Part shown: one piece after another, positions 15,104 to 58,291 of the stretch
How the letters are laid out: every line of letters begins with the position of its first letter
Numbering within the stretch: position 1 is the stretch's first letter
DNA from: an uncultured Acidimicrobiales bacterium
Lineage (GTDB): Bacteria > Actinomycetota > Acidimicrobiia > Acidimicrobiales > SZUA-35
Direction of reading: 5' to 3'
DNA length: 64,000 nt
NCBI GenBank assembly: GCA_937997485.1
Contig: CALKTH010000059.1
Coordinates: 37,569-101,568, forward strand
Notes under the pieces: generated by a model
What the model saw: only the letters and a program-made list of their open reading frames with translations
The model's database searches: none
Told to the model about the DNA's origin: nothing
Program-made: the position numbers and the translations under genes

Positions 15104-15553
15104 TCAGCCGACGAAGGAAAAGACCAGTTCGCCGAGTTCGCCATCGAGCGTGAGTTGACGCTCCCCTGCGTCCGACGCGCCAGCGTCGATGCTGGCGTTG
15201 TTGGCGGTGATGAGCGTCTGCACGAACGCTCCAGCAGAGATGTCGAGAAGTGGGCTGCACTGTTGGCCACCAACCTCCACGTCAGCGACCGTGAAGTCGG
15301 CGGCCGTGGATGAAACCAGCCCGTTGATCTCGTTGCAGTAGACCTCGCCGGTCAATGTCCCGCCGTCGAACCGCAGCACGATCACTCCATCTTCCACCGG
15401 TTGCACCGCTCCCCCGGTGTGTCGCCAGGCGCCGGCGAGTTCAGCGGACGTCGGACCGTCTTCGGCACCGAGGTCAGACGCACAGCTGGCGGCCGCAAGA
15501 GCGGCCGCCAGCAGGCAAAGGATGATGCGCACGGGGCGAGCGGCGAAGCTCAA
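15104..15553 (-). CDS. Lipoprotein, META(HslJ)-like domain
   Basis: The signal peptide has a lipobox (LAAASC). GTLTGEVYCNEING resembles META domains. There is a 4-nt overlap with the upstream redoxin gene. Confidence 0.5.
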   Translation of the reverse strand: MSFAARPVRIILCLLAAALAAASCASDLGAEDGPTSAELAGAWRHTGGAVQPVEDGVIVLRFDGGTLTGEVYCNEINGLVSSTAADFTVADVEVGGQQCSPLLDISAGAFVQTLITANNASIDAGASDAGERQLTLDGELGELVFSFVG

Positions 15554-16143
15554 GCGGCGATCAGCTGATCGATGCGCTCGCTGAGACCGTCGGCTCCCAG
15601 CGCTCCGGTCCGATCGACGATGCTGCCATCGTCGTCGATGAAGATGAAGAAGGGTTGGCCTCGCACATCGAGCGCGGTCCAGATGTCGCCGGCTTCGTCG
15701 AACACGTGCGTAAACCCGCTGACACCTCGGGTGTCGATGAATTGCTGCATGGCTCCGGGGTCATCACGACCCGCCATGCCGATGATCGTGACATCATCAC
15801 CGTATTGCTCCTGTGCTGCGGCGACCGAACTGGCCTCCCGTTGACAGGTCGGTCACCACGGTGCCCAGAACCAGAGCACGATGTCATCGCCACGGTGGGC
15901 TTCGAGATCGAAGGCCGCGCCGTCTGAAGTCGTTCCGACAAAAGCGGGGAATGGATCGGCAGCGTCACCGGAGTCGGTCGAGTCGTTGGCCGCAGCGGGG
16001 GCTGCAGCCGTTGTCTCGGCGTTGTCGCCACCAGACCCACAGGCCGAGATCAGCAGCGCAAGGGCTGCCGCCAAGGCAATGAGGGTGCGTCGAGGTGTTT
16101 CCACAAGCGGCAACCGTAGGCGATTGTCCGGACGATGCATCAT
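15550..16143 (-). CDS. TlpA/ResA-like thioredoxin-fold lipoprotein with in-frame TGA (15853..15855) at the first position of the CxxC motif; candidate selenoprotein (UPTC)
   Basis: Track ORFs 15853..16404 and 15550..15777 are in the same frame, and this TGA is the only stop between them. Read-through gives ...DIVLWFWAPW-U-PTCQREASSVAAAQEQYGDDVTIIGMAGRDDPGAMQQFID...QPFFIFIDDDGSIV.... The N-terminus has a lipobox (LLISAC). Start is uncertain (ATG at 16143 or 16140, or GTG at 16104). Confidence 0.65.
15821..15851 (-). promoter_or_regulatory. SECIS-like hairpin downstream of the redoxin TGA
   Basis: The mRNA reads UGA-CCGACCUGUCAACGGGAGG-CCAGUUCGGUCGC. A GGCC/GGUC stem (extendable with G16-C32 and G15-C33) is capped by an AGUUC loop. 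The same 13-mer occurs at the same offset in the GrdB-like gene. Confidence 0.55.
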
Positions 16144-21911: not shown

Positions 21912-23159
21912 ATGCCCTCCGCTTCCTCCACCCAGTCCAGCGTTTCCACGCGGGAAAAGACCGTCACCTATTGGATCGACGAGCGCAACGGCAAGTTCCC
22001 ATTGCCGTGGTGGAAGATGCTCCCGCTTGCCCTCCTCGCTCTTCTCGCCGTCGTCGGCATCAGCACGCTGTGGGCGGTTCCGCACATCGAAGGAATGGTG
22101 GAGGACGACGCACGAGCTCGCATTGCTGCGCTCGGCGGGGATCCGGGCGACTACAACTACGACGCCACCTACCGCAACATCGACATCGCTGGACCGTCGA
22201 TTGACGGTGTCAGCGCGGCGGACTTCGAGGCAGCTCTGGAAGGGGACGACTCAGTTCGCAGTGCTTCGCTTGCGCTCACAGCGCCCGTGGCCCCTGAACC
22301 CGCCGAAGAAGAGCCCGCTGTGGAAGAAGAAGTCGCCGAGGAAGCACCAGTCGAAGATCCCGAGCCAGAGGTTGCGCTGGGTTCCACAAACGTCACGGCC
22401 ACGATCGACGCTGACGGCATGGTCGTGCTCGAGGGTGAGGTACTGAACGAGGCCCAACGCAGCCAGCTCGTCAATCTGGCGATCGCGCGCTTCGGCGAAG
22501 GAAACGTGACCGACAACCTGACGGTCTCGGACCTCGGTGCACTCGAGCCTGGAGCCAGCGGCCGAGTCACCGCACTTGGATCACTCATTTTCAGCCTGCC
22601 AGAGGGCAGCAATGGCGTGGCCACGCTCACCGACACCTCGCTCGACTTTGCTGGGAACGTTGCCGACGAGGCAGCCAAGAACGGTCTCGAAGGCACGCTC
22701 AACGGCTTCGGCAGCGTCGATACCAGCTCCACCCTCACGATCGATGCAACGATCATCGAAGGCGAGATCGACACGCTGCAGGAAGAGTTCGACGAGCTGG
22801 AGGCTGAAATCCGTGAGAACGTCACCTTCGCCACCGGTTCAGACGTGCTCAACCCCACGGCGACCGAGACGCTCGACAAGGCCGTGGCACTGATGAACAA
22901 GTATTCGCTCCCCGTCGTGGACATCTCCGGCCACACCGATGACCAGGGCGGAGCGGCCGCCAACGAAGCGCTCAGCGGGGCACGAGCCGCCGCCGTGGCG
23001 CAGTATCTGATCGATGCGGGCATCAGCGAGGACCGCATTCAGTCACGTGGACTCGGTGAGTCCGTTCCCATCGCCGACAACGGCACCGAGGAAGGACGCC
23101 AGGAGAACCGACGAGTGGAACTCGTCGCCCTTGCTTCCTTCGCCGATCTCGACAACTGA
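21912..23159 (+). CDS. OmpA-family (peptidoglycan-binding C-terminal domain) membrane protein
   Basis: The C-terminus reads [10 protein letters not shown]...[34 protein letters not shown]...NRRVELV. There is an N-terminal TM helix. Confidence 0.85.
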
Positions 23160-23220
23160 TCTGTCCGCTCGTTCCCTCCTCTCACACGTTCCCGCCACCA
23201 ACCAACCCAAAGGATTGTTC

Positions 23221-24564
23221 ATGCTCTGGGCACTTCCAGAAATCGTCCTTCCCCTCATCATTGCGTTTCTGATCGGCTTGCTGATCGGTTGGCTGTGGTG
23301 GGGCTGGCGCCGCACCAAGATCTCCTACACGGAGTGGGAGACCATGCGCCAAAAGTCCAACCGTGCATCCTCGGTCGACACCGATGCCGAGCTTCAGGGC
23401 CTGCGCTCCGATCTCGACTCGCATCAGAGTGACCTCGATGCGCTTCGAGCAGAGCGAGACGAGCTCCAGGCCTCCCTCGATGAATGCAACCGCCGCCACG
23501 AGGCAGGTGCTGACGCGGGCAGCCCGGATGGAGACAGCGAAGCTGGTCTTGGTGGAGGTGTGCTTGCGGGAGCCGCCGCTGCAGGGGCGGCCGGTGCCGC
23601 TGACGGTGATGGCGGCGATCATGAGGTGCAGGGTCTCGTCGCCACCACCGATGGTGACGCGGAGGCTGATGCGGACGGAGATGGCGCAAGCCGAGCCGTG
23701 GTCGGCGGTGTGGTGCATCCCTATGGCGATGGATCACACGCTCCGTGGGAAGACGACAAGCGGGAGCAGCCCGAGGGCTACCCGATCAAGGGCAACGTCG
23801 ACTCCATGCTCTACCACCGGCCCGACAGCCGGAACTACGGCGCCACCGGCGCTGAAGTCTGGTTCGACACCGCCGACTCCGCCGAGACCGCTGGCTTCGC
23901 CCTCTCGCCCACGCATCCCAAGAGCGATGCCGACGATGCAGGACCGGCCGCAGATGCCGTCGACACCGAGGCGGGCGCTGATGCCGGTCTCCGGGCGGTC
24001 ACTGGCAAGCGGCACCCGTACGGCGCCGGTTCGCACGCACCGTTCGCTGAGGCGAAGCGAGATCAGCCAGACGGCTACCCGATCAAGGGCAACGTCGACT
24101 CCATGCTCTACCACCGGCCAGACAGCCGGAACTACGGCGCCACCGGCGCTGAAGTCTGGTTCGACACCCCCGACTCCGCCGAGACCGCTGGCTTCTCGTT
24201 GTCACCGAGCCACCCCTCGACGGACCTTCCAGACGGCATGACGTTCGCCGCTGCCCCGACCCCGAGCGCCCAGGCCCTCGCCGACGACGGCACGAACGAC
24301 ACGCCAGAGGGTGCCGATTCGGCCGACAGCGACGAGTTCGCTGGCGAACAGCACCCCTACGGCGAGGGCTCGCATGCTCCGTACGCCAACGAGCCGCGCC
24401 GGATGCCAGAGGGCTACACGATCAAGGGCAACGTGGACTCGATGCTCTACCACCGTGAAGACTCTCGGAACTACGGGGCGACCATCGCCGAGGTGTGGTT
24501 CGACACGGCCGAGCGGGCAGAGGCAGCAGGCTTCGCCCTCTCGCCGACCCATCCCAAGAGCTGA
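23221..24564 (+). CDS. Membrane-anchored protein: N-terminal TM helix, coiled-coil, three copies of a ~70-aa HPYGxGSHAP...[24 protein letters not shown].AEVWFDT...AE.AGF module
   Basis: I placed the start at the ATG at 23221 ([29 protein letters not shown]). The three repeats are read directly from the translation. The module resembles the short IKGN...YH.P...Y...WF.T..EA..AGF domain seen at termini of other bacterial proteins; I am not certain of its name. Confidence 0.7.
23716..24561 (+). repeat. Three intragenic repeats (starts 23716, 24013, 24352); cores 23776..23898 and 24073..24195 differ at 2 of 123 nt
   Basis: Direct nucleotide comparison of the two cores. The third copy is clearly more diverged. 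Confidence 0.9.
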
Positions 24565-24726: not shown

Positions 24727-26088
24727 TTGATGGTGGACATGTCCTCCACGGCTCACTCCCCCACCTCCACTCGGACGGCGACTCGCACGAGCAGTGCCAG
24801 CGCCCCCGGCCCGTCATCCCAGACCTCACTCGCAGATCTGGCCTCGGCGACCAAGTCGGATCGCAACCGAGCGGTCGACTTCTATCGGGCGATGGCCATG
24901 CTGGCCGTCGCCTACGGGCATTGGGCCGCCATTCATATCGCACAGGACAGCTCCGGCGCACTGATCGCTGGCAACGCACTCGAGTTTGCACCGTCGATGT
25001 CGTGGATCACCTGGATCTTCCAGGTGATGCCCCTGTTCTTCGTCGTCGGTGGCTTCTCTTCTGCCATCTCCCTCGACAGCCACAACCGAGCGGGCGGACG
25101 CCCCCAGGATTGGGTTGCTGCTCGGCTGCGTCGCATGCTTGCGCCAACGATTGTTCTCGCCTCGACGTGGCTCGGCATCATGGCGTTGGGTCAGCTCGCC
25201 GGCGTCGGGAACTTGGCTTTCCAGGGCGCGATTGCGGCGGCGATTCCGCTGTGGTTCCTGGCCAACTACACCATCGATACGGCCATCGCCCCCACCGTGC
25301 TTCCGTTCTTTCGGCGACATCCGGCGCTCGTCGCTATCGGCGGAAGCTTCACCTTCGTGGGCTTCGAAGTCGTTCGCTTCATGGGGCACCACACGATCGC
25401 TCAGATCAACTGGGTCCTCGGTTGGCTGCTCTTCCAGATCGCTGGATTCGCCTGGCGCGACGGGCTGCTCCCCGCCGGTCGTCGCATGATTGCCCTCGCT
25501 GGCGGGTTCTGGGCAGCCGCTCTGGTCGCTGTCTTCGGTCCCTACCCCGTGTCGATGGTCCACTTCCCCGGCCTGGAGAACTCGCCCACGCATCCGCCGT
25601 CGATTGCCCTGATGCTGTTCGGCGCTGCGTACAGCGCCACGGCCATCGCTGCGGCTCCGGCGATCTCGGCGTGGCTGGCTCGCAGCCCCCGAGCCTGGGC
25701 CGCCACGATCGCAGCGAATGCCAGTTCACTCACCGTGTATCTCTGGCACTTCAGCGCAGCCGTCGCCGCTGCAGCCGTCTTCTACGCCTTCGGCTGGTTG
25801 CCAACGGCGGAGGTCAACACTCTCGCTTGGTGGCTCCAGAAGTTGCCCCTCATCGGCCTCAGCACCGTCTTCCTCGCTGGCATCGTCGCCGCTCTCGGAC
25901 GATTCGAACGCAAAGCCCTGCTGGCACCTCGTGTTCCATGGCGAGGAAGCCATGCCTCGATCATCGGTGTGGCGCTGATCGTGTCCACTGCGGTCAAGCT
26001 GTGGACCTTCGGACATCCGATCGCCGTGGTTGCCGGTGCAGGAGCACTCGTTCTGGTCTGGTTCAGTGCACTAGCGTCCCGGAAGTGA
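24727..26088 (+). CDS. Acyltransferase family 3 integral membrane protein
   Basis: NRAVDFYRAMAMLAVAYGHW and about 10 predicted TM segments. Start is at TTG 24727 or ATG 24730. Confidence 0.8.
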   Translation: MMVDMSSTAHSPTSTRTATRTSSASAPGPSSQTSLADLASATKSDRNRAVDFYRAMAMLAVAYGHWAAIHIAQDSSGALIAGNALEFAPSMSWITWIFQVMPLFFVVGGFSSAISLDSHNRAGGRPQDWVAARLRRMLAPTIVLASTWLGIMALGQLAGVGNLAFQGAIAAAIPLWFLANYTIDTAIAPTVLPFFRRHPALVAIGGSFTFVGFEVVRFMGHHTIAQINWVLGWLLFQIAGFAWRDGLLPAGRRMIALAGGFWAAALVAVFGPYPVSMVHFPGLENSPTHPPSIALMLFGAAYSATAIAAAPAISAWLARSPRAWAATIAANASSLTVYLWHFSAAVAAAAVFYAFGWLPTAEVNTLAWWLQKLPLIGLSTVFLAGIVAALGRFERKALLAPRVPWRGSHASIIGVALIVSTAVKLWTFGHPIAVVAGAGALVLVWFSALASRK

Positions 26089-26954
26089 GCAGGGAACACG
26101 CATCCACCGCCCGACGGACCTTCGTCAGCTACATCGACAAGTCCCGTGAGTTCTACGCAGCCCACGGGTACGACAAGCCCTACCAATGGGCCACACACGA
26201 CGACGTGCCCTTCGCCCCGCTTTCCAGCGGGGCGTTGGCCGCGCTACGGGTCGGGGTGGTCACCACCACCTTTCCCGTGGGGGCGCCGATGCCGAAGCAG
26301 GTGATGGCAATCCCCACCTCACCAACGCCCGAGGCGATGTTCACTGCCGATCTGTCTTGGGACAAGGACGCCACCCACACCAACGATGTCGGGTCGTTCC
26401 TTCCGCTGAACGCCCTGCATGCCGCAGTCGAGCGCGGCACGATCGGGTCGGTGGCTCCTCGCACGTTCTGCGTACCCACCCAATACAGCCAACGCCAGAC
26501 TCGAGAGGATGCCGTTGCGATCGAATCCTGGTGTCGTGAGGACGACGTCGACGTGGTCGTTCTCGTTCCTCTTTGACCCGTCTGCCATCTGACGACCAGT
26601 TTGGTCGCTCGTCACCTCGAGGCCGCAGGGATCCCCACCGTGATCATCGGCAGCGCCCGCGACATCGTCGAGGAGTGCGGGGTTCCACGCCTCCTGTTCG
26701 TGGACTTCCCACTCGGCAATCCATGCGGGGAGCCCGGCAACGTCGAGATGCAAGCCGAACTTCTCGATCAGGCGCTCACACTGCTCTCGACTGCGGTTCT
26801 CCCACGAACCACAACGCAGTCACCGTTCCGATGGTCGGGTGGCGACGACTGGCGGGAGATGTACATGAGGGTCGATGACTCGAATCGGGAGGCGCTGCTC
26901 ACGGCTGGCCGAGAGCGCCGAGCGGCACAGGCGGCCAAGCGAGCGAACGGCTGA
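26085..26954 (+). CDS. Glycine/sarcosine/betaine/proline reductase component B (GRDB) family protein with in-frame TGA (26574..26576) at the family's Sec position; candidate selenoprotein (UPVC)
   Basis: The tail of track ORF 24921..26576 and ORF 26601..26954 share a frame with only this TGA between them. Read-through gives ...GTIGSVAPRTFCVPTQ...DDVDVVVLVPL-U-PVCHLTTSLVARHLEAAGIPTVIIGSARDIV...FPLGNPCGEPGN.... This matches the GrdB/PrdB pattern (U-x-x-C, then E-x-x-GIP-x-V, then P-L-G-N-P). A GTG start at 26085 overlaps the upstream stop (GTGA). Confidence 0.7.
26590..26611 (+). promoter_or_regulatory. SECIS-like hairpin downstream of the GrdB-like TGA
   Basis: UGACGACC aguuu GGUCG(c)UCG forms an 8-bp stem with a one-nt bulge and an AGUUU loop. 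The 13-mer CCAGTTTGGTCGC lies at 26596..26608, which is +20..+32 after the TGA. Confidence 0.55.
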
Positions 26955-31980: not shown

Positions 31981-32067
31981 GCGGACGTGGCGGAATTGGC
32001 AGACGCGCTGGGTTTAGGTCCCAGTGTTCGAAAGAACGTGAGGGTTCAAGTCCCTCCGTCCGCACCA
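31981..32067 (+). tRNA. tRNA-Leu (anticodon UAG), class II with long variable arm, CCA encoded
   Basis: Acceptor GCGGACG/CGTCCGC. Anticodon arm CTGGG-TTTAGGT-CCCAG. T arm GAGGG-TTCAAGT-CCCTC. Ends ACCA. Confidence 0.9.
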
Positions 32068-35629: not shown

Positions 35630-37648
35630 GTGGGCAGAAGGTTCCATTTGCTCCAGTCGGCACAGCGAGCCGCCGAAATTGTTGGTGTGACCAACAGTGG
35701 CGACTCCGCACTTCCGCGCTGGACCGCGAACGCGCGCGCCGCGACGGCGCTGCGAATCGTTCTCGCCTCGACACCCACGATCCTCGCCTTCATCACCGTT
35801 CTGGTCCTTCTCAGGATGCTCCCCGCCTCCTCGTCCCGAACGACGGCGCTGTTGATGCTCACTCCCATTGCCCTCGCTTCAGCCTTCGTTGGGTGGGCCG
35901 CGGGCAACATCTGCCGGCGCTTGCTTCCTCTGGCGGCGCTCATGAAACTCTCGCTCGTTTTCCCCGATCAGGCACCATCTCGCTTCAAAATGGCCATTCG
36001 TGCCAGCAGTAGTCGCCGTCTCGCAGAAGACGTGCGGGAAGCACAGCGCAACGGTCTGTCGACCGATGTGACGACGGCGTCCGAGCAGGTACTGATGCTG
36101 ACGTCCGCCGTCGGCGAGCACGATCGCCGAACTCGCGGCCACTCGGAGCGAGTGCGCGTGCTCGCTCGCCTCATCGGTGAGGAGATGGGATTCAACGAGA
36201 TCGATCTCGAGAAGCTGCAATGGGCTGCGCTCCTGCACGACATCGGCAAGCTGACCGTCCCGCCCGAGATCCTCAACAAGCCGGGAAAGCTGGATGACAC
36301 CGAGTGGGCCATTCTGCACGATCACCCTGTCGCCGGACGCGAACTGATTGCTCCGGTTGCCGGGTTCCTCGGCCAGTTCGCTGCGGCGGCCGACGGCCAC
36401 CACGAGCGGTGGGACGGTACCGGCTATCCAGCTGGTCTCGCGGGAGCCGCCATTCCGATCGCAGCCCGCATCGTTGCCGTCGCCGATGCCTACGAAGTGA
36501 TGACCGCCACGAGGTCCTACAAAGTGCCGATGAGCGCTGAGGCCGCACGCACCGAGCTCACGAACAGCGCTGGCTCCCACTTCGATCCCGCCGTGGTCCG
36601 AGCTCTTCTCAACGTTTCGATCGGCAAGTTGCGCGTGGCGACCGGACCGATGTCGCTCCTGCTCGGCATCCCCGTGCTGGGGCACGCCTTCGGCATTCTG
36701 GCGCGAGCGGGAGTGACGGTCAGCGGCACATCCGCCACGGTAGCTGGCAGCTTCCAACCGGTTGTGTCCACTGCGGCCGCGGTGAGCGTCGTTGCCGCGT
36801 CTTCGATCGGCATCCCCGACCCTCAGCCAAATCTCGCCTTCCGGGAGGAGGTTGCGGCCTTCGTTGTGGAGTCGACGACCACGACCGAAGCGACCACGAC
36901 GACGAGCACGACCACGAGCGAAGCGCCGACGACAACGACGACTGCGCCGACCACCACCGAGACCGCGCCCCCATCCACCACGGTCGTGACAACAGCGCCG
37001 ACCACCGAGGCACCCACGACGACAACTGCCCTGCCGACCACCACCACGGCACCGCCCACGACTGCTGCACCGACGACAACTGTCCCTCCCACCACCATCG
37101 CCCCGACAACGACCACGGCGCTCCCCATCGCGACTGCACCGACCACGACCGCCCCACCAACCACCGCAGCCCCGACAACGACCGCCCCACCAACCGTGGT
37201 CAACATCGAGAGCGGCAACGCGACCTACGCAGGACCCGTGCCGGCGGGCGCTGACTTCACGGCCACGGGACCGCATCAAGATCTGAACAACGCACTCATC
37301 TTCACCGAAGGCGCGACAACCCTGGCCGACGATCTGGCAGTTGACGGTGCGGTGATCCCAGCCGGAACCAACGTGTGCTCGACGCTCGTCTTCTACAACC
37401 CGGGGCCGATGGTCACGTCTGTCGGCTTCAAGCTCGAGTTCGACGAGGACATCTTGGCCATTGCCTTCTCCGACGCTGGTCTCGTAGCCAGTGACGTTCT
37501 CGGGGCTTCGGGGGCGACGTACAGCGACATGGTGCGGGGAGCCGAGTTCCCAGACTCCATCGTGTTGGACGACGAAGACATCGAAGCGGTCTTGGCGGTC
37601 TCTGGTGGGTCCGACATGTTCCGAGTCATTACCGAGTGTCCTGACTGA
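35630..37648 (+). CDS. Membrane HD-GYP domain protein (c-di-GMP phosphodiesterase type) with Thr/Pro-rich linker and uncharacterised C-terminal domain
   Basis: HSERVRVLARLIGEE...LLHDIGKLTVP...HHERWDGTGYP. TM segments flank the HD-GYP domain. A T/P/A-rich tract is encoded at about 36880..37195. Start is uncertain. Confidence 0.8.
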   Translation: MGRRFHLLQSAQRAAEIVGVTNSGDSALPRWTANARAATALRIVLASTPTILAFITVLVLLRMLPASSSRTTALLMLTPIALASAFVGWAAGNICRRLLPLAALMKLSLVFPDQAPSRFKMAIRASSSRRLAEDVREAQRNGLSTDVTTASEQVLMLTSAVGEHDRRTRGHSERVRVLARLIGEEMGFNEIDLEKLQWAALLHDIGKLTVPPEILNKPGKLDDTEWAILHDHPVAGRELIAPVAGFLGQFAAAADGHHERWDGTGYPAGLAGAAIPIAARIVAVADAYEVMTATRSYKVPMSAEAARTELTNSAGSHFDPAVVRALLNVSIGKLRVATGPMSLLLGIPVLGHAFGILARAGVTVSGTSATVAGSFQPVVSTAAAVSVVAASSIGIPDPQPNLAFREEVAAFVVESTTTTEATTTTSTTTSEAPTTTTTAPTTTETAPPSTTVVTTAPTTEAPTTTTALPTTTTAPPTTAAPTTTVPPTTIAPTTTTALPIATAPTTTAPPTTAAPTTTAPPTVVNIESGNATYAGPVPAGADFTATGPHQDLNNALIFTEGATTLADDLAVDGAVIPAGTNVCSTLVFYNPGPMVTSVGFKLEFDEDILAIAFSDAGLVASDVLGASGATYSDMVRGAEFPDSIVLDDEDIEAVLAVSGGSDMFRVITECPD

Positions 37649-38286: not shown

Positions 38287-38670
38287 GGGGCTGACCGGTT
38301 TCGACGTCGGGACGAGAAGTCGTTTGTGCGACCCGAGTTGCTCAGACTCGTAAAACAGGGCTCAACAAGAAGCGCCAACAAGGCTGACTTCGCTCTCGCT
38401 GCCTGATCTAGTCAGATAGCAAGAGGAACATCGCGAGCCGTGAGGCCACGCGGGGCCTGATCGTCACAGCCCGGCAACAGAAGTGATGGTGGACGGTGGG
38501 AGAGACCACTGCCAGGAGGGAAAGACCCCTGACATCTGGGAAAGACCAGGCGGTATCTCTTCGGAGGCGGTGACCCGGCACCTCGATGGCCGAAAATCGA
38601 GATCACGGGAACGGTCGTAGCGCGAGCGGTGACTCCTCGGCGGACGGGGGTTCGATTCCCCCCAGCTCCA
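38287..38670 (+). ncRNA. ssrA: tmRNA (SsrA)
   Basis: The 5' end GGGGCTGACCGGTTTCGAC pairs with the 3' end CAGCTCC-A, including a G3:U pair. The T arm is GGGGGTTCGATTCCCCC. The tag ORF ends ...GCC AAC AAG GCT GAC TTC GCT CTC GCT GCC TGA (..ANKADFALAA*). It lies immediately downstream of smpB. Confidence 0.9.
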
Positions 38671-38851
38671 CAAAACAAAACAAAACGAAACAACAAGACA
38701 CAACCAACAAGAAGCGTGATGTCTTGAAGCGCGGTGCCTCGGCAAGTGAACGATCCGACGGCGGCGAACGAGAAGGTTTTTCTCGGATTTCTTGGTCGGG
38801 ACCCCCGGATTCGGGGGTTCAGTGTCACACCCCCTGCGTAGTGTTTGACGC

Positions 38852-57721: not shown

Positions 57722-58291
57722 TCAGCCCCCGGGCGGGGTGATGTCGATGAGCCCGACGTCGCCTTCGTCTCGTCGGTACACGACAGCATTTCGACCTGTC
57801 AGCTCGTTCGTGAACAGGTAGAAGTCGTGGTTCAGGAGATCCATTTGCAGGGCGGCCTCTTCTGGAGGCATCGATCCCAGATCGAAGACCTTGGCCTTCG
57901 CGATCGTGTAGATCGGCTCGGGGTGATCGCCTTCGAGCAGGCTCTCTGGCACGAGATCCGGCGGAAGCTCGACCTTCTCGCGAGAACGATTGCGCTTCTG
58001 GACCTTGGTCTTGAGCTTGCGAAGCTGGCGTTCGAGCTTGTCGACGGCAAGGTCGATGGCCGTGAAGCCATCCGGGGCGGACACTTTCGTTCGCACGTGG
58101 TGGCCGTGACCCTCCAACGTCACCTCGCAGAACTCGGTTTTGTCCTTTCTGGGATTCTTCTCTTCCCAGAAGTGCACTTCGGCTCGGTCCATCCCACCGA
58201 GATATCGATCCAGACGTCCGATTTTCTCCACTGCCTGCTGTCGGAGTGACTCCGACACCGTCGTGTGTCGACCGCTGACCGTTACCTCCAT
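57722..58291 (-). CDS. hpf: Ribosome hibernation promoting factor (long HPF)
   Basis: MEVTVSGRHTTVSESLRQQAVEKIGRLDRYL, with a C-terminal dimerisation-type extension. Confidence 0.9.
   Translation of the reverse strand: MEVTVSGRHTTVSESLRQQAVEKIGRLDRYLGGMDRAEVHFWEEKNPRKDKTEFCEVTLEGHGHHVRTKVSAPDGFTAIDLAVDKLERQLRKLKTKVQKRNRSREKVELPPDLVPESLLEGDHPEPIYTIAKAKVFDLGSMPPEEAALQMDLLNHDFYLFTNELTGRNAVVYRRDEGDVGLIDITPPGG

Follow-up and report, generated by a model that had tools for sequence, protein, structure and literature searches.

Two in-frame UGA codons followed by near-identical hairpins in an Acidimicrobiales contig: probable selenocysteine insertion elements of a widely shared type

Two genes interrupted by in-frame TGA codons

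The 64,000-nt stretch of DNA analysed here (the window; positions 37,569 to 101,568 of contig CALKTH010000059.1, assembly GCA_937997485.1, from an uncultured Acidimicrobiales bacterium) contains two genes on opposite strands whose reading frames are each interrupted by a TGA codon. One encodes a PrdB-like protein and the other a TlpA/ResA-like redoxin. Both TGAs are predicted to be read as selenocysteine (Sec, U), and each is followed by a hairpin that is a putative selenocysteine insertion sequence (SECIS), for which ViennaRNA gave the minimum free energies (MFE) below. The features concerned are:

26085-26954 (+), PrdB-like (GrdB/PrdB superfamily) putative selenoprotein gene; 289 codons on TGA read-through, motif LVPL-U-PVCH
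26574-26576 (+), predicted UGA Sec codon of the PrdB-like gene, aligned to a conserved cysteine (Cys) of homologues
26590-26611 (+), putative SECIS hairpin of the PrdB-like gene, UGACGACC-AGUUU-GGUCG(C)UCG; MFE -9.0 kcal/mol
26596-26608 (+), shared 13-mer CCAGTTTGGTCGC, comprising the last two 5'-side stem pairs, the loop and the 3' stem arm
15550-16143 (-), TlpA/ResA-like redoxin putative selenoprotein gene; 197 codons on TGA read-through, lipoprotein signal LISAC, motif WAPW-U-PTC
15855-15853 (-), predicted UGA Sec codon of the redoxin gene, from translation and homologue alignment
15840-15819 (-), putative SECIS hairpin of the redoxin gene, CGG(GA)GGCC-AGUUC-GGUC(G)CCG; MFE -8.7 kcal/mol
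15833-15821 (-), redoxin copy of the shared 13-mer, CCAGTTCGGTCGC

The GTG start of the PrdB-like gene shares the nucleotides GTGA (26085-26088, +) with the stop of an upstream gene encoding an Acyl_transf_3 membrane protein, which suggests translational coupling or co-transcription of the two. The top NCBIfam match of its product was TIGR04483, D-proline reductase PrdB, with 80.5 bits; as this is far below the curated cut-off of 300 bits, we call the protein PrdB-like only and not D-proline reductase PrdB proper. A Pfam scan gave no match, GRDB included. The U residue aligns with the Cys of CPVCH in 16 full-length homologues, and by this alignment the predicted product is shown to be a protein with a U-x-x-C redox motif. 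Over 130 amino acids it shares 66% identity with AACY01464622, a selenoprotein from the Sargasso Sea (“Proline reductase PrdB”); in the Sargasso Sea selenoprotein set published in 2005, the PrdB family comprised 42 Sec members with a UXXC motif (PMC1088965). Three assemblies, independent of one another, have this TGA.

The redoxin protein matched the Pfam families Redoxin (64.5 bits, 1.2e-17) and AhpC-TSA (57.5 bits, 1.7e-15). In 10 Cys homologues the residue opposite its U is the first Cys of WAPWC(P/T)TC, and the alignment thus shows the predicted product to be a secreted TlpA/ResA-like thiol-disulfide oxidoreductase lipoprotein with a U-x-x-C motif. Sec-containing orthologues with the same TGA occur in two Acidimicrobiales metagenome-assembled genomes (MAGs; loci L055 and L092). 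Despite a protein identity of only 40%, the 17-nt core GAGGCCAGTTCGGTCGC is identical in both of them. The hairpin encodes the peptide EASSV, at a place where all 10 Cys homologues have E-A/G-P-x-V (consensus EAPDV); the Sec orthologues L055 and L092 also have EASSV, i.e., the proline of E-A-P-x-V is replaced by serine. It seems that the RNA requirement of the putative redoxin SECIS overrides a conserved position of the protein.

Homologue alignments revealed that the sequence 3' of both TGAs is still conserved at the protein level. Public gene calls break both genes at the TGA, giving pieces of 163 and 117 amino acids for the PrdB-like gene and a reported piece of 75 amino acids for the redoxin gene.

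The two hairpins and the bacterial SECIS model

Nineteen nucleotides after both TGAs follows CCAGTTYGGTCGC, of which the window holds only these two copies. On the plus strand the 19-nt spacer CCCGTCTGCCATCTGACGA is followed by CCAGTTTGGTCGC, and on the minus strand the spacer CCGACCTGTCAACGGGAGG by CCAGTTCGGTCGC. The two 13-mers agree in 12 of 13 nt at equal offset from the TGA, so that the coordinates and the identity given in a first-pass annotation of the sequence were confirmed. Its remark that the window has no other close copy also held: a scan of both strands with the degenerate 13-mer, accompanied by shuffles, returned exactly two exact matches, while five others carried 2 mismatches, a number not above that in shuffles. 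By our own arithmetic, an identity of at least 12/13 between two random sites at a fixed register has a probability of ~1e-6 at the base composition of the window.

The ViennaRNA folds agree with the stems and AGUUY loops described in that annotation. The PrdB-like hairpin has 9 bp, counting the A-U pair that closes a GUU triloop, and one bulged C; its apical loop (26598-26602) corresponds to nt 25-29 if the U of UGA is counted as 1, with GU at nt 26-27. The redoxin hairpin consists of 4 + 3 bp about a small internal loop, and its apical loop lies at 15831-15827. In the codon usage of the window, AGT has a share of 6.4% among the Ser codons and TTG one of 8.8% among the Leu codons. The rare AGT is used in both hairpin loops and TTG in one of them, that of the PrdB-like gene.

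We compared the hairpins with the bacterial SECIS (bSECIS) model of Zhang and Gladyshev (2005) in the form in which PMC13188914 restates it: an upper stem of 4-16 bp that carries an apical loop of 3-9 nt, a G within the first two loop positions (usually N1-G-[G|U]-N-N2), a UGA-to-loop distance of 16-37 nt and an MFE <= -7.5 kcal/mol. Both window hairpins have pentaloops, AGUUU on a stem of 5-9 bp in the PrdB-like gene and AGUUC on one of 4+3 bp in the redoxin gene. Both loops read A-G-U-U-Y, the second position being G and the third U, and both start 21 nt from the UGA, which places the distance inside the bacterial range as the first reading of the sequence had it. The MFEs of 31-nt pieces, -9.0 and -8.7 kcal/mol, lie below the threshold, though they are no better than those of shuffles. 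Both hairpins stand directly 3' of an in-frame UGA aligned to a homologue Cys. As in the model, they lie inside the coding sequence just after the UGA, and N1 and N2 of AGUUU can pair. No essential departure from the bSECIS model was seen; it is defined by structure only, whereas the two elements of the window share 12/13 nt of sequence besides.

The likeness to the SECIS of Escherichia coli fdhF (PMC8659212) lies in a loop GU on the 5' side, closed by A-U (A-GGUC-U there, A-GUU-U here), and in the place of the hairpin base, which lies 12-13 nt after the UGA in the window and 11 nt in E. coli fdhF. As to differences, the GU is G23/U24 in the latter but nt 26-27 in the window hairpins, and the bulged U17 on the 5' arm of the fdhF element has no counterpart in them. 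What they show instead is a C bulging from the 3' arm in the PrdB-like element and a small internal loop in the redoxin one. An assignment to the E. coli fdhF type was therefore rejected, as GU register, 5' bulge and hairpin start all differ.

Conservation and distribution of the hairpins

The alignment of PrdB-like proteins was used to scan metagenome contigs, and the best 80 relatives (L124-L203) were examined. TGA stands at the Sec position in 78 of these 80. A perfect stem of >=5 bp with an NGUNN pentaloop was found in 69 of the 70 unique sequences. The greatest share, 65/70, has a hairpin that we denote type B, ACCAGAC-CGUGA-GUCUGGU, in which the loop occupies nt 21-25; 4/70 have type A, i.e., the register of the window with an AGUYU loop at nt 25-29. 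The stems of these type A elements (CCGUC/GACGG, CCGUG/CACGG and CGGUC/GACCG) are unlike those of the window and are compensating. Type B shares with the PrdB-like hairpin of the window the gene family, the Sec codon, a 6-7 bp stem and the NGUNN pentaloop. Its GU comes from a Val codon, whereas in the PrdB-like gene of the window the GU comes from the Ser codon AGU and the loop lies 4 nt further downstream.

Among 69 Sec-form PrdB-like sequences, the synonymous entropy is ~0 bits at codons +4 to +9 (CAC CAG ACC GTG AGT CTG of the type B set) and 1-2 bits in the flanking codons. This collapse is confined to the hairpin codons and is direct evidence of selection on the RNA. In none of four Cys-form PrdB-like genes, two of them labelled Actinomycetota/Acidimicrobiales, does a stem of >=5 bp carry a loop with GU as its second and third nucleotides. 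Their peptides read SLVAR in two genes and ALVAR and SLTAR in the others, SLVAR being conserved as a peptide throughout the family, Cys forms included; they are encoded by other codons, in two genes without AGT. Additionally, we aligned 19 type A elements, in which a six-pair helix is paired in 88.6% of the cells and three pairs change on both sides. In the corresponding covariation test, 0/500 shuffles reached the observed score or percentage paired.

Several further variants were seen in this family. Type B elements with compensatory changes include CCAGGU/GCCUGG and, from the Sargasso Sea set, CCAAAC/GUUUGG. The sequence L189:3496-3543 (also L198) fits both registers, as CAGAC-GGUCA-GUUUG with the loop at nt 21-25 or as CGGUC-AGUUU-GACCG with the loop at nt 25-29, and may represent a transitional form linking types A and B. 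On four contigs, a second putative selenoprotein gene, AhpD/CMD-like, lies directly downstream of the PrdB-like gene (L124:1902-2627, L128:3859-4476, L131:3725-4474 and L159:850-1455). It has the motif HRN(E/Q)CVH-U and the SECIS (G/U)UCAUC-GUU-GAUG(G/A), with GU at nt 24-25. On all four contigs, it has no stem sequence in common with the adjoining type B element of the PrdB-like gene.

A scan for TGA-N17-GRCCAGTTYGGTCGC over one genome per GTDB species matched at least 120 loci, and 13 of the 120 matches listed fall at obvious Sec codons. Among the matches listed, the PrdB-like genes belong to an Acidimicrobiia MAG (L113, 51% identical to the protein of the window), a Bacilli MAG, Desulfitobacterium and two unclassified MAGs, and the redoxin orthologues to the two Acidimicrobiales MAGs with loci L055 and L092. 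One Myxococcales MAG contributed a DsbA-like gene (FSDFQ-U-PYC), and Rdx/SelW-like EYCxxU genes came from Anaerolineales (two), Chloroflexi, Planctomycetota and Marinimicrobia. The remaining 107 of the 120 matches listed constitute chance or hitch-hiking occurrences. Fourteen further matches with long flanking open reading frames (ORFs) were rejected as Sec sites: their translations are wrong-frame junk, except at L062, whose TGA is the genuine stop of a gene for an ABC ATPase. At least 10 of the matches listed go back to a single conserved gene of actinobacteria, encoding ..MEGQFGRGYKGP.., whose reading frame does not coincide with that of the TGA; in L020, L024, L035, L036, L060, L091, L099, L102, L104 and L110 this gene contains GGCCAGTTCGGTCGC, with the out-of-frame TGA 17 nt upstream. 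It makes a useful negative control for motif-only SECIS searches.

The Sargasso Sea supplement (PMC1088965, Additional file 1) contains CCAGTTTGG ten times, always with Watson-Crick flanks (7 T..A, 3 G..C). Nine of the ten copies could be placed, and 9/9 lie in SelW-like genes, 19 nt after the TGA. Of the first 19 Sargasso SelW-like genes, 12 have an AGUUU, AGUUA or AGUUG loop on a stem of >=4-5 bp, starting at nt 21, 24 or 25. These marine SelW-like (Rdx) elements (PMC1088965) share with the window the register (loop nt 25-29, GU nt 26-27), AGUUU and the CC/GG closing pairs, and the high-G+C Rdx genes of Chloroflexi, Planctomycetota and Marinimicrobia have the full 15-17-mer GCGRCCAGUUUGGUCGC. 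They differ from the window's elements in the host protein family and, in the A+T-rich Sargasso genes, in the lower stems (UUCC/GGAA, CUCC/GGAG, GCCGAC/GUCGGC). The same 15-mer at the same spacing across four families and several phyla points to a widely used SECIS solution and not to a private signature. Most PrdB-like genes elsewhere have type B, so that the hairpin of the window's PrdB-like gene is a minority variant; it happens to agree with that of the redoxin gene found in this genome.

Interpretation and further features of the window

These comparisons make it very probable that both sites are genuine bacterial SECIS elements and that their similarity reflects convergence on a common SelB-binding solution, not a code of the lineage. 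Both genes belong to selenoprotein families known since 2005, which are here unannotated and split in the public data. Binding of an apical-loop GU by SelB is known from work on E. coli and Moorella thermoacetica. By analogy with these two bacteria, the in-frame UGA would enter the ribosomal A site with the hairpin, 12-13 nt downstream, at the mRNA entrance; the apical loop A-G-U-U-Y (GU at nt 26-27) would be bound by the C-terminal winged-helix domain of SelB, and SelB would deliver Sec-tRNA(Sec), so that the UGA is read as selenocysteine instead of stop. The alikeness of the two elements would stem from convergence on a G+C-rich stem, CC/GG closure and an AGUU-type pentaloop at nt 25-29. Among the stop codons of the window, TGA is used most often, and any recoding must therefore be local.

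Several observations weigh against this reading. The folding energies are not exceptional compared with shuffles, with z = -1.8 (PrdB-like) and -0.7 (redoxin) for the 31-nt pieces and z ~0 for longer pieces (47-67 nt) of both. A generic scan of the window for TGA followed by a stem of >=5 bp with an NGUNN loop found 12 sites vs 10.7 +/- 3.6 in shuffles. The significance of the hairpins thus derives from their common sequence and from comparison with relatives, and not from thermodynamics. No Rfam SECIS family matched the window hairpins, either at the gathering threshold or at E <= 10; Rfam models cover bacterial SECIS poorly, as was commented in a 2026 preprint. A tRNA search did not find tRNA-Sec in the 64-kb window, and none of selA, selB and selD was seen there, protein genes not having been searched systematically. 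According to a 2026 preprint, selC, selA, selD and a divergent selB are present in all genomes of Actinomarinales, class Acidimicrobiia; the Sec machinery of this class is thus documented for another order and in preprint form only. It is the best homologues of the window's genes, together with their orthologues, that point to Acidimicrobiia. The Cys-form comparison comprises four genes only, and 15 of the 19 rows of the type A alignment were chosen by a pattern that fixes the core, so that independent covariation comes from the 4 metagenomic rows only. Sec insertion at both UGAs is given here as a prediction from sequence.

A lineage-specific signature, as proposed in the first-pass annotation, would mean that SelB of this actinobacterial lineage co-evolved to need the 13-mer, which would then occur in all Sec genes of the lineage and no others. 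Both Sec genes of the window do carry it, and three of the 13 true matches among those listed come from Acidimicrobiia or Acidimicrobiales (L113, L055, L092). Moreover, most PrdB-like relatives use ACCAGAC-CGUGA-GUCUGGU, so that the version in the window is not simply the default of the family, and the PrdB-like and adjacent AhpD-like Sec genes on other contigs lack common stems. However, the identical 15-mer with the same spacing was found in Chloroflexota, Planctomycetota, Marinimicrobia, Myxococcales, Bacilli and Desulfitobacterium, AGUU-type pentaloops at nt 25-29 or 21-25 occur in 12 of those 19 Sargasso SelW-like genes, and L113, L055 and L092 are orthologues of the window's own two genes and hence show descent, not an independent preference. 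We consider such a signature unlikely. What stands of the proposal are the Sec codons and the tops of the SECIS hairpins; its lineage-specific part is not supported, the 15-mer being spread over four families and several phyla.

Alternatively, the likeness could be a by-product of similar peptides (TSLVA and ASSVA) or of chance, without selection on the RNA. This would fit the unremarkable hairpin energies and the conservation of SLVAR at the protein level, which extends to the Cys forms. But the folds of the two proteins are unrelated, the hairpins draw on Ser and Leu codons that the window seldom uses, Cys-form PrdB-like genes arrive at an identical or almost identical peptide through different codons and without a GU pentaloop, and the redoxin peptide departs from the family consensus EAPDV. 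With a probability of ~1e-6 for the 12/13 identity at one register and the vanishing synonymous entropy in the hairpin codons of the PrdB-like relatives, this explanation is very improbable. Still less credence can be given to the possibility that the TGAs are real stops, in pseudogenes, through sequencing errors or between separately translated halves. It is the public gene calls, with their fragments of 163 + 117 and 75 amino acids, that would speak for it; against it, the TGA recurs in the three independent assemblies, in nearly all of the best 80 relatives and in distant orthologues, always at the catalytic Cys position and with full conservation downstream. The judgement of the first reading that two coincidental nonsense mutations are very unlikely can be sharpened: they are excluded. 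The Cys alignments, the conservation of the TGA in 78/80 relatives and in the two Acidimicrobiales MAGs, and the agreement with all four bSECIS criteria support the reading of both TGAs as Sec codons.

SelB recognition in many bacteria might be more sequence-specific and more conserved than the structure-only bSECIS model implies. We advance this tentatively, because the exact core GRCC-AGUUY-GGUCGC recurs 17 nt after the UGA across families and phyla. It stands behind Sec codons of at least four unrelated protein families in at least three named phyla plus less precisely named groups, and AGUU-type pentaloops at two fixed registers (nt 21-25 and nt 25-29) dominate the PrdB-like and SelW-like genes. 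Were it true, a short motif would be a sensitive probe for unannotated selenoprotein genes and, as a corollary, a SECIS could overwrite conserved residues of its host protein, as EAPDV to EASSV in the redoxin. Once the putative SECIS elements are recognised, two selenoproteins of a probably acidimicrobial MAG regain their full length. The conceptual value is modest: one small hairpin appears to be reused in unrelated coding sequences, constraining codons and amino acids, and neither a new recoding mechanism nor a lineage-private signal is revealed.

Among the sites of the generic scan, no third Sec candidate with UxxC/CxxU context and a frame open on both sides was found in the window. The TGA at 57722-57724 (-), flanked by 204 + 959 codons in the same frame, was rejected as an FdhA-type Sec site, as it separates hpf (ribosome hibernation factor) from the following secA. 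A scan for read-through ORFs based on G+C at third codon positions (GC3) was discarded as too noisy at the 64% G+C of the window. In the literature, a search found no mention of the 11-mer motif together with SECIS.

Two structured RNA genes, and no others, were detected in the window:

31981-32067 (+), tRNA-Leu gene, from structured RNA detection
38287-38673 (+), transfer-messenger RNA (tmRNA) gene, tag peptide ANKADFALAA

Additionally, the ORF at 23014-24564 (+) encodes three tandem repeats of ~110 amino acids (HPYG.GSHAP ... AGF.LSP.HP), and its counterpart in L001 has a Pfam match to ArfC (PF27542).

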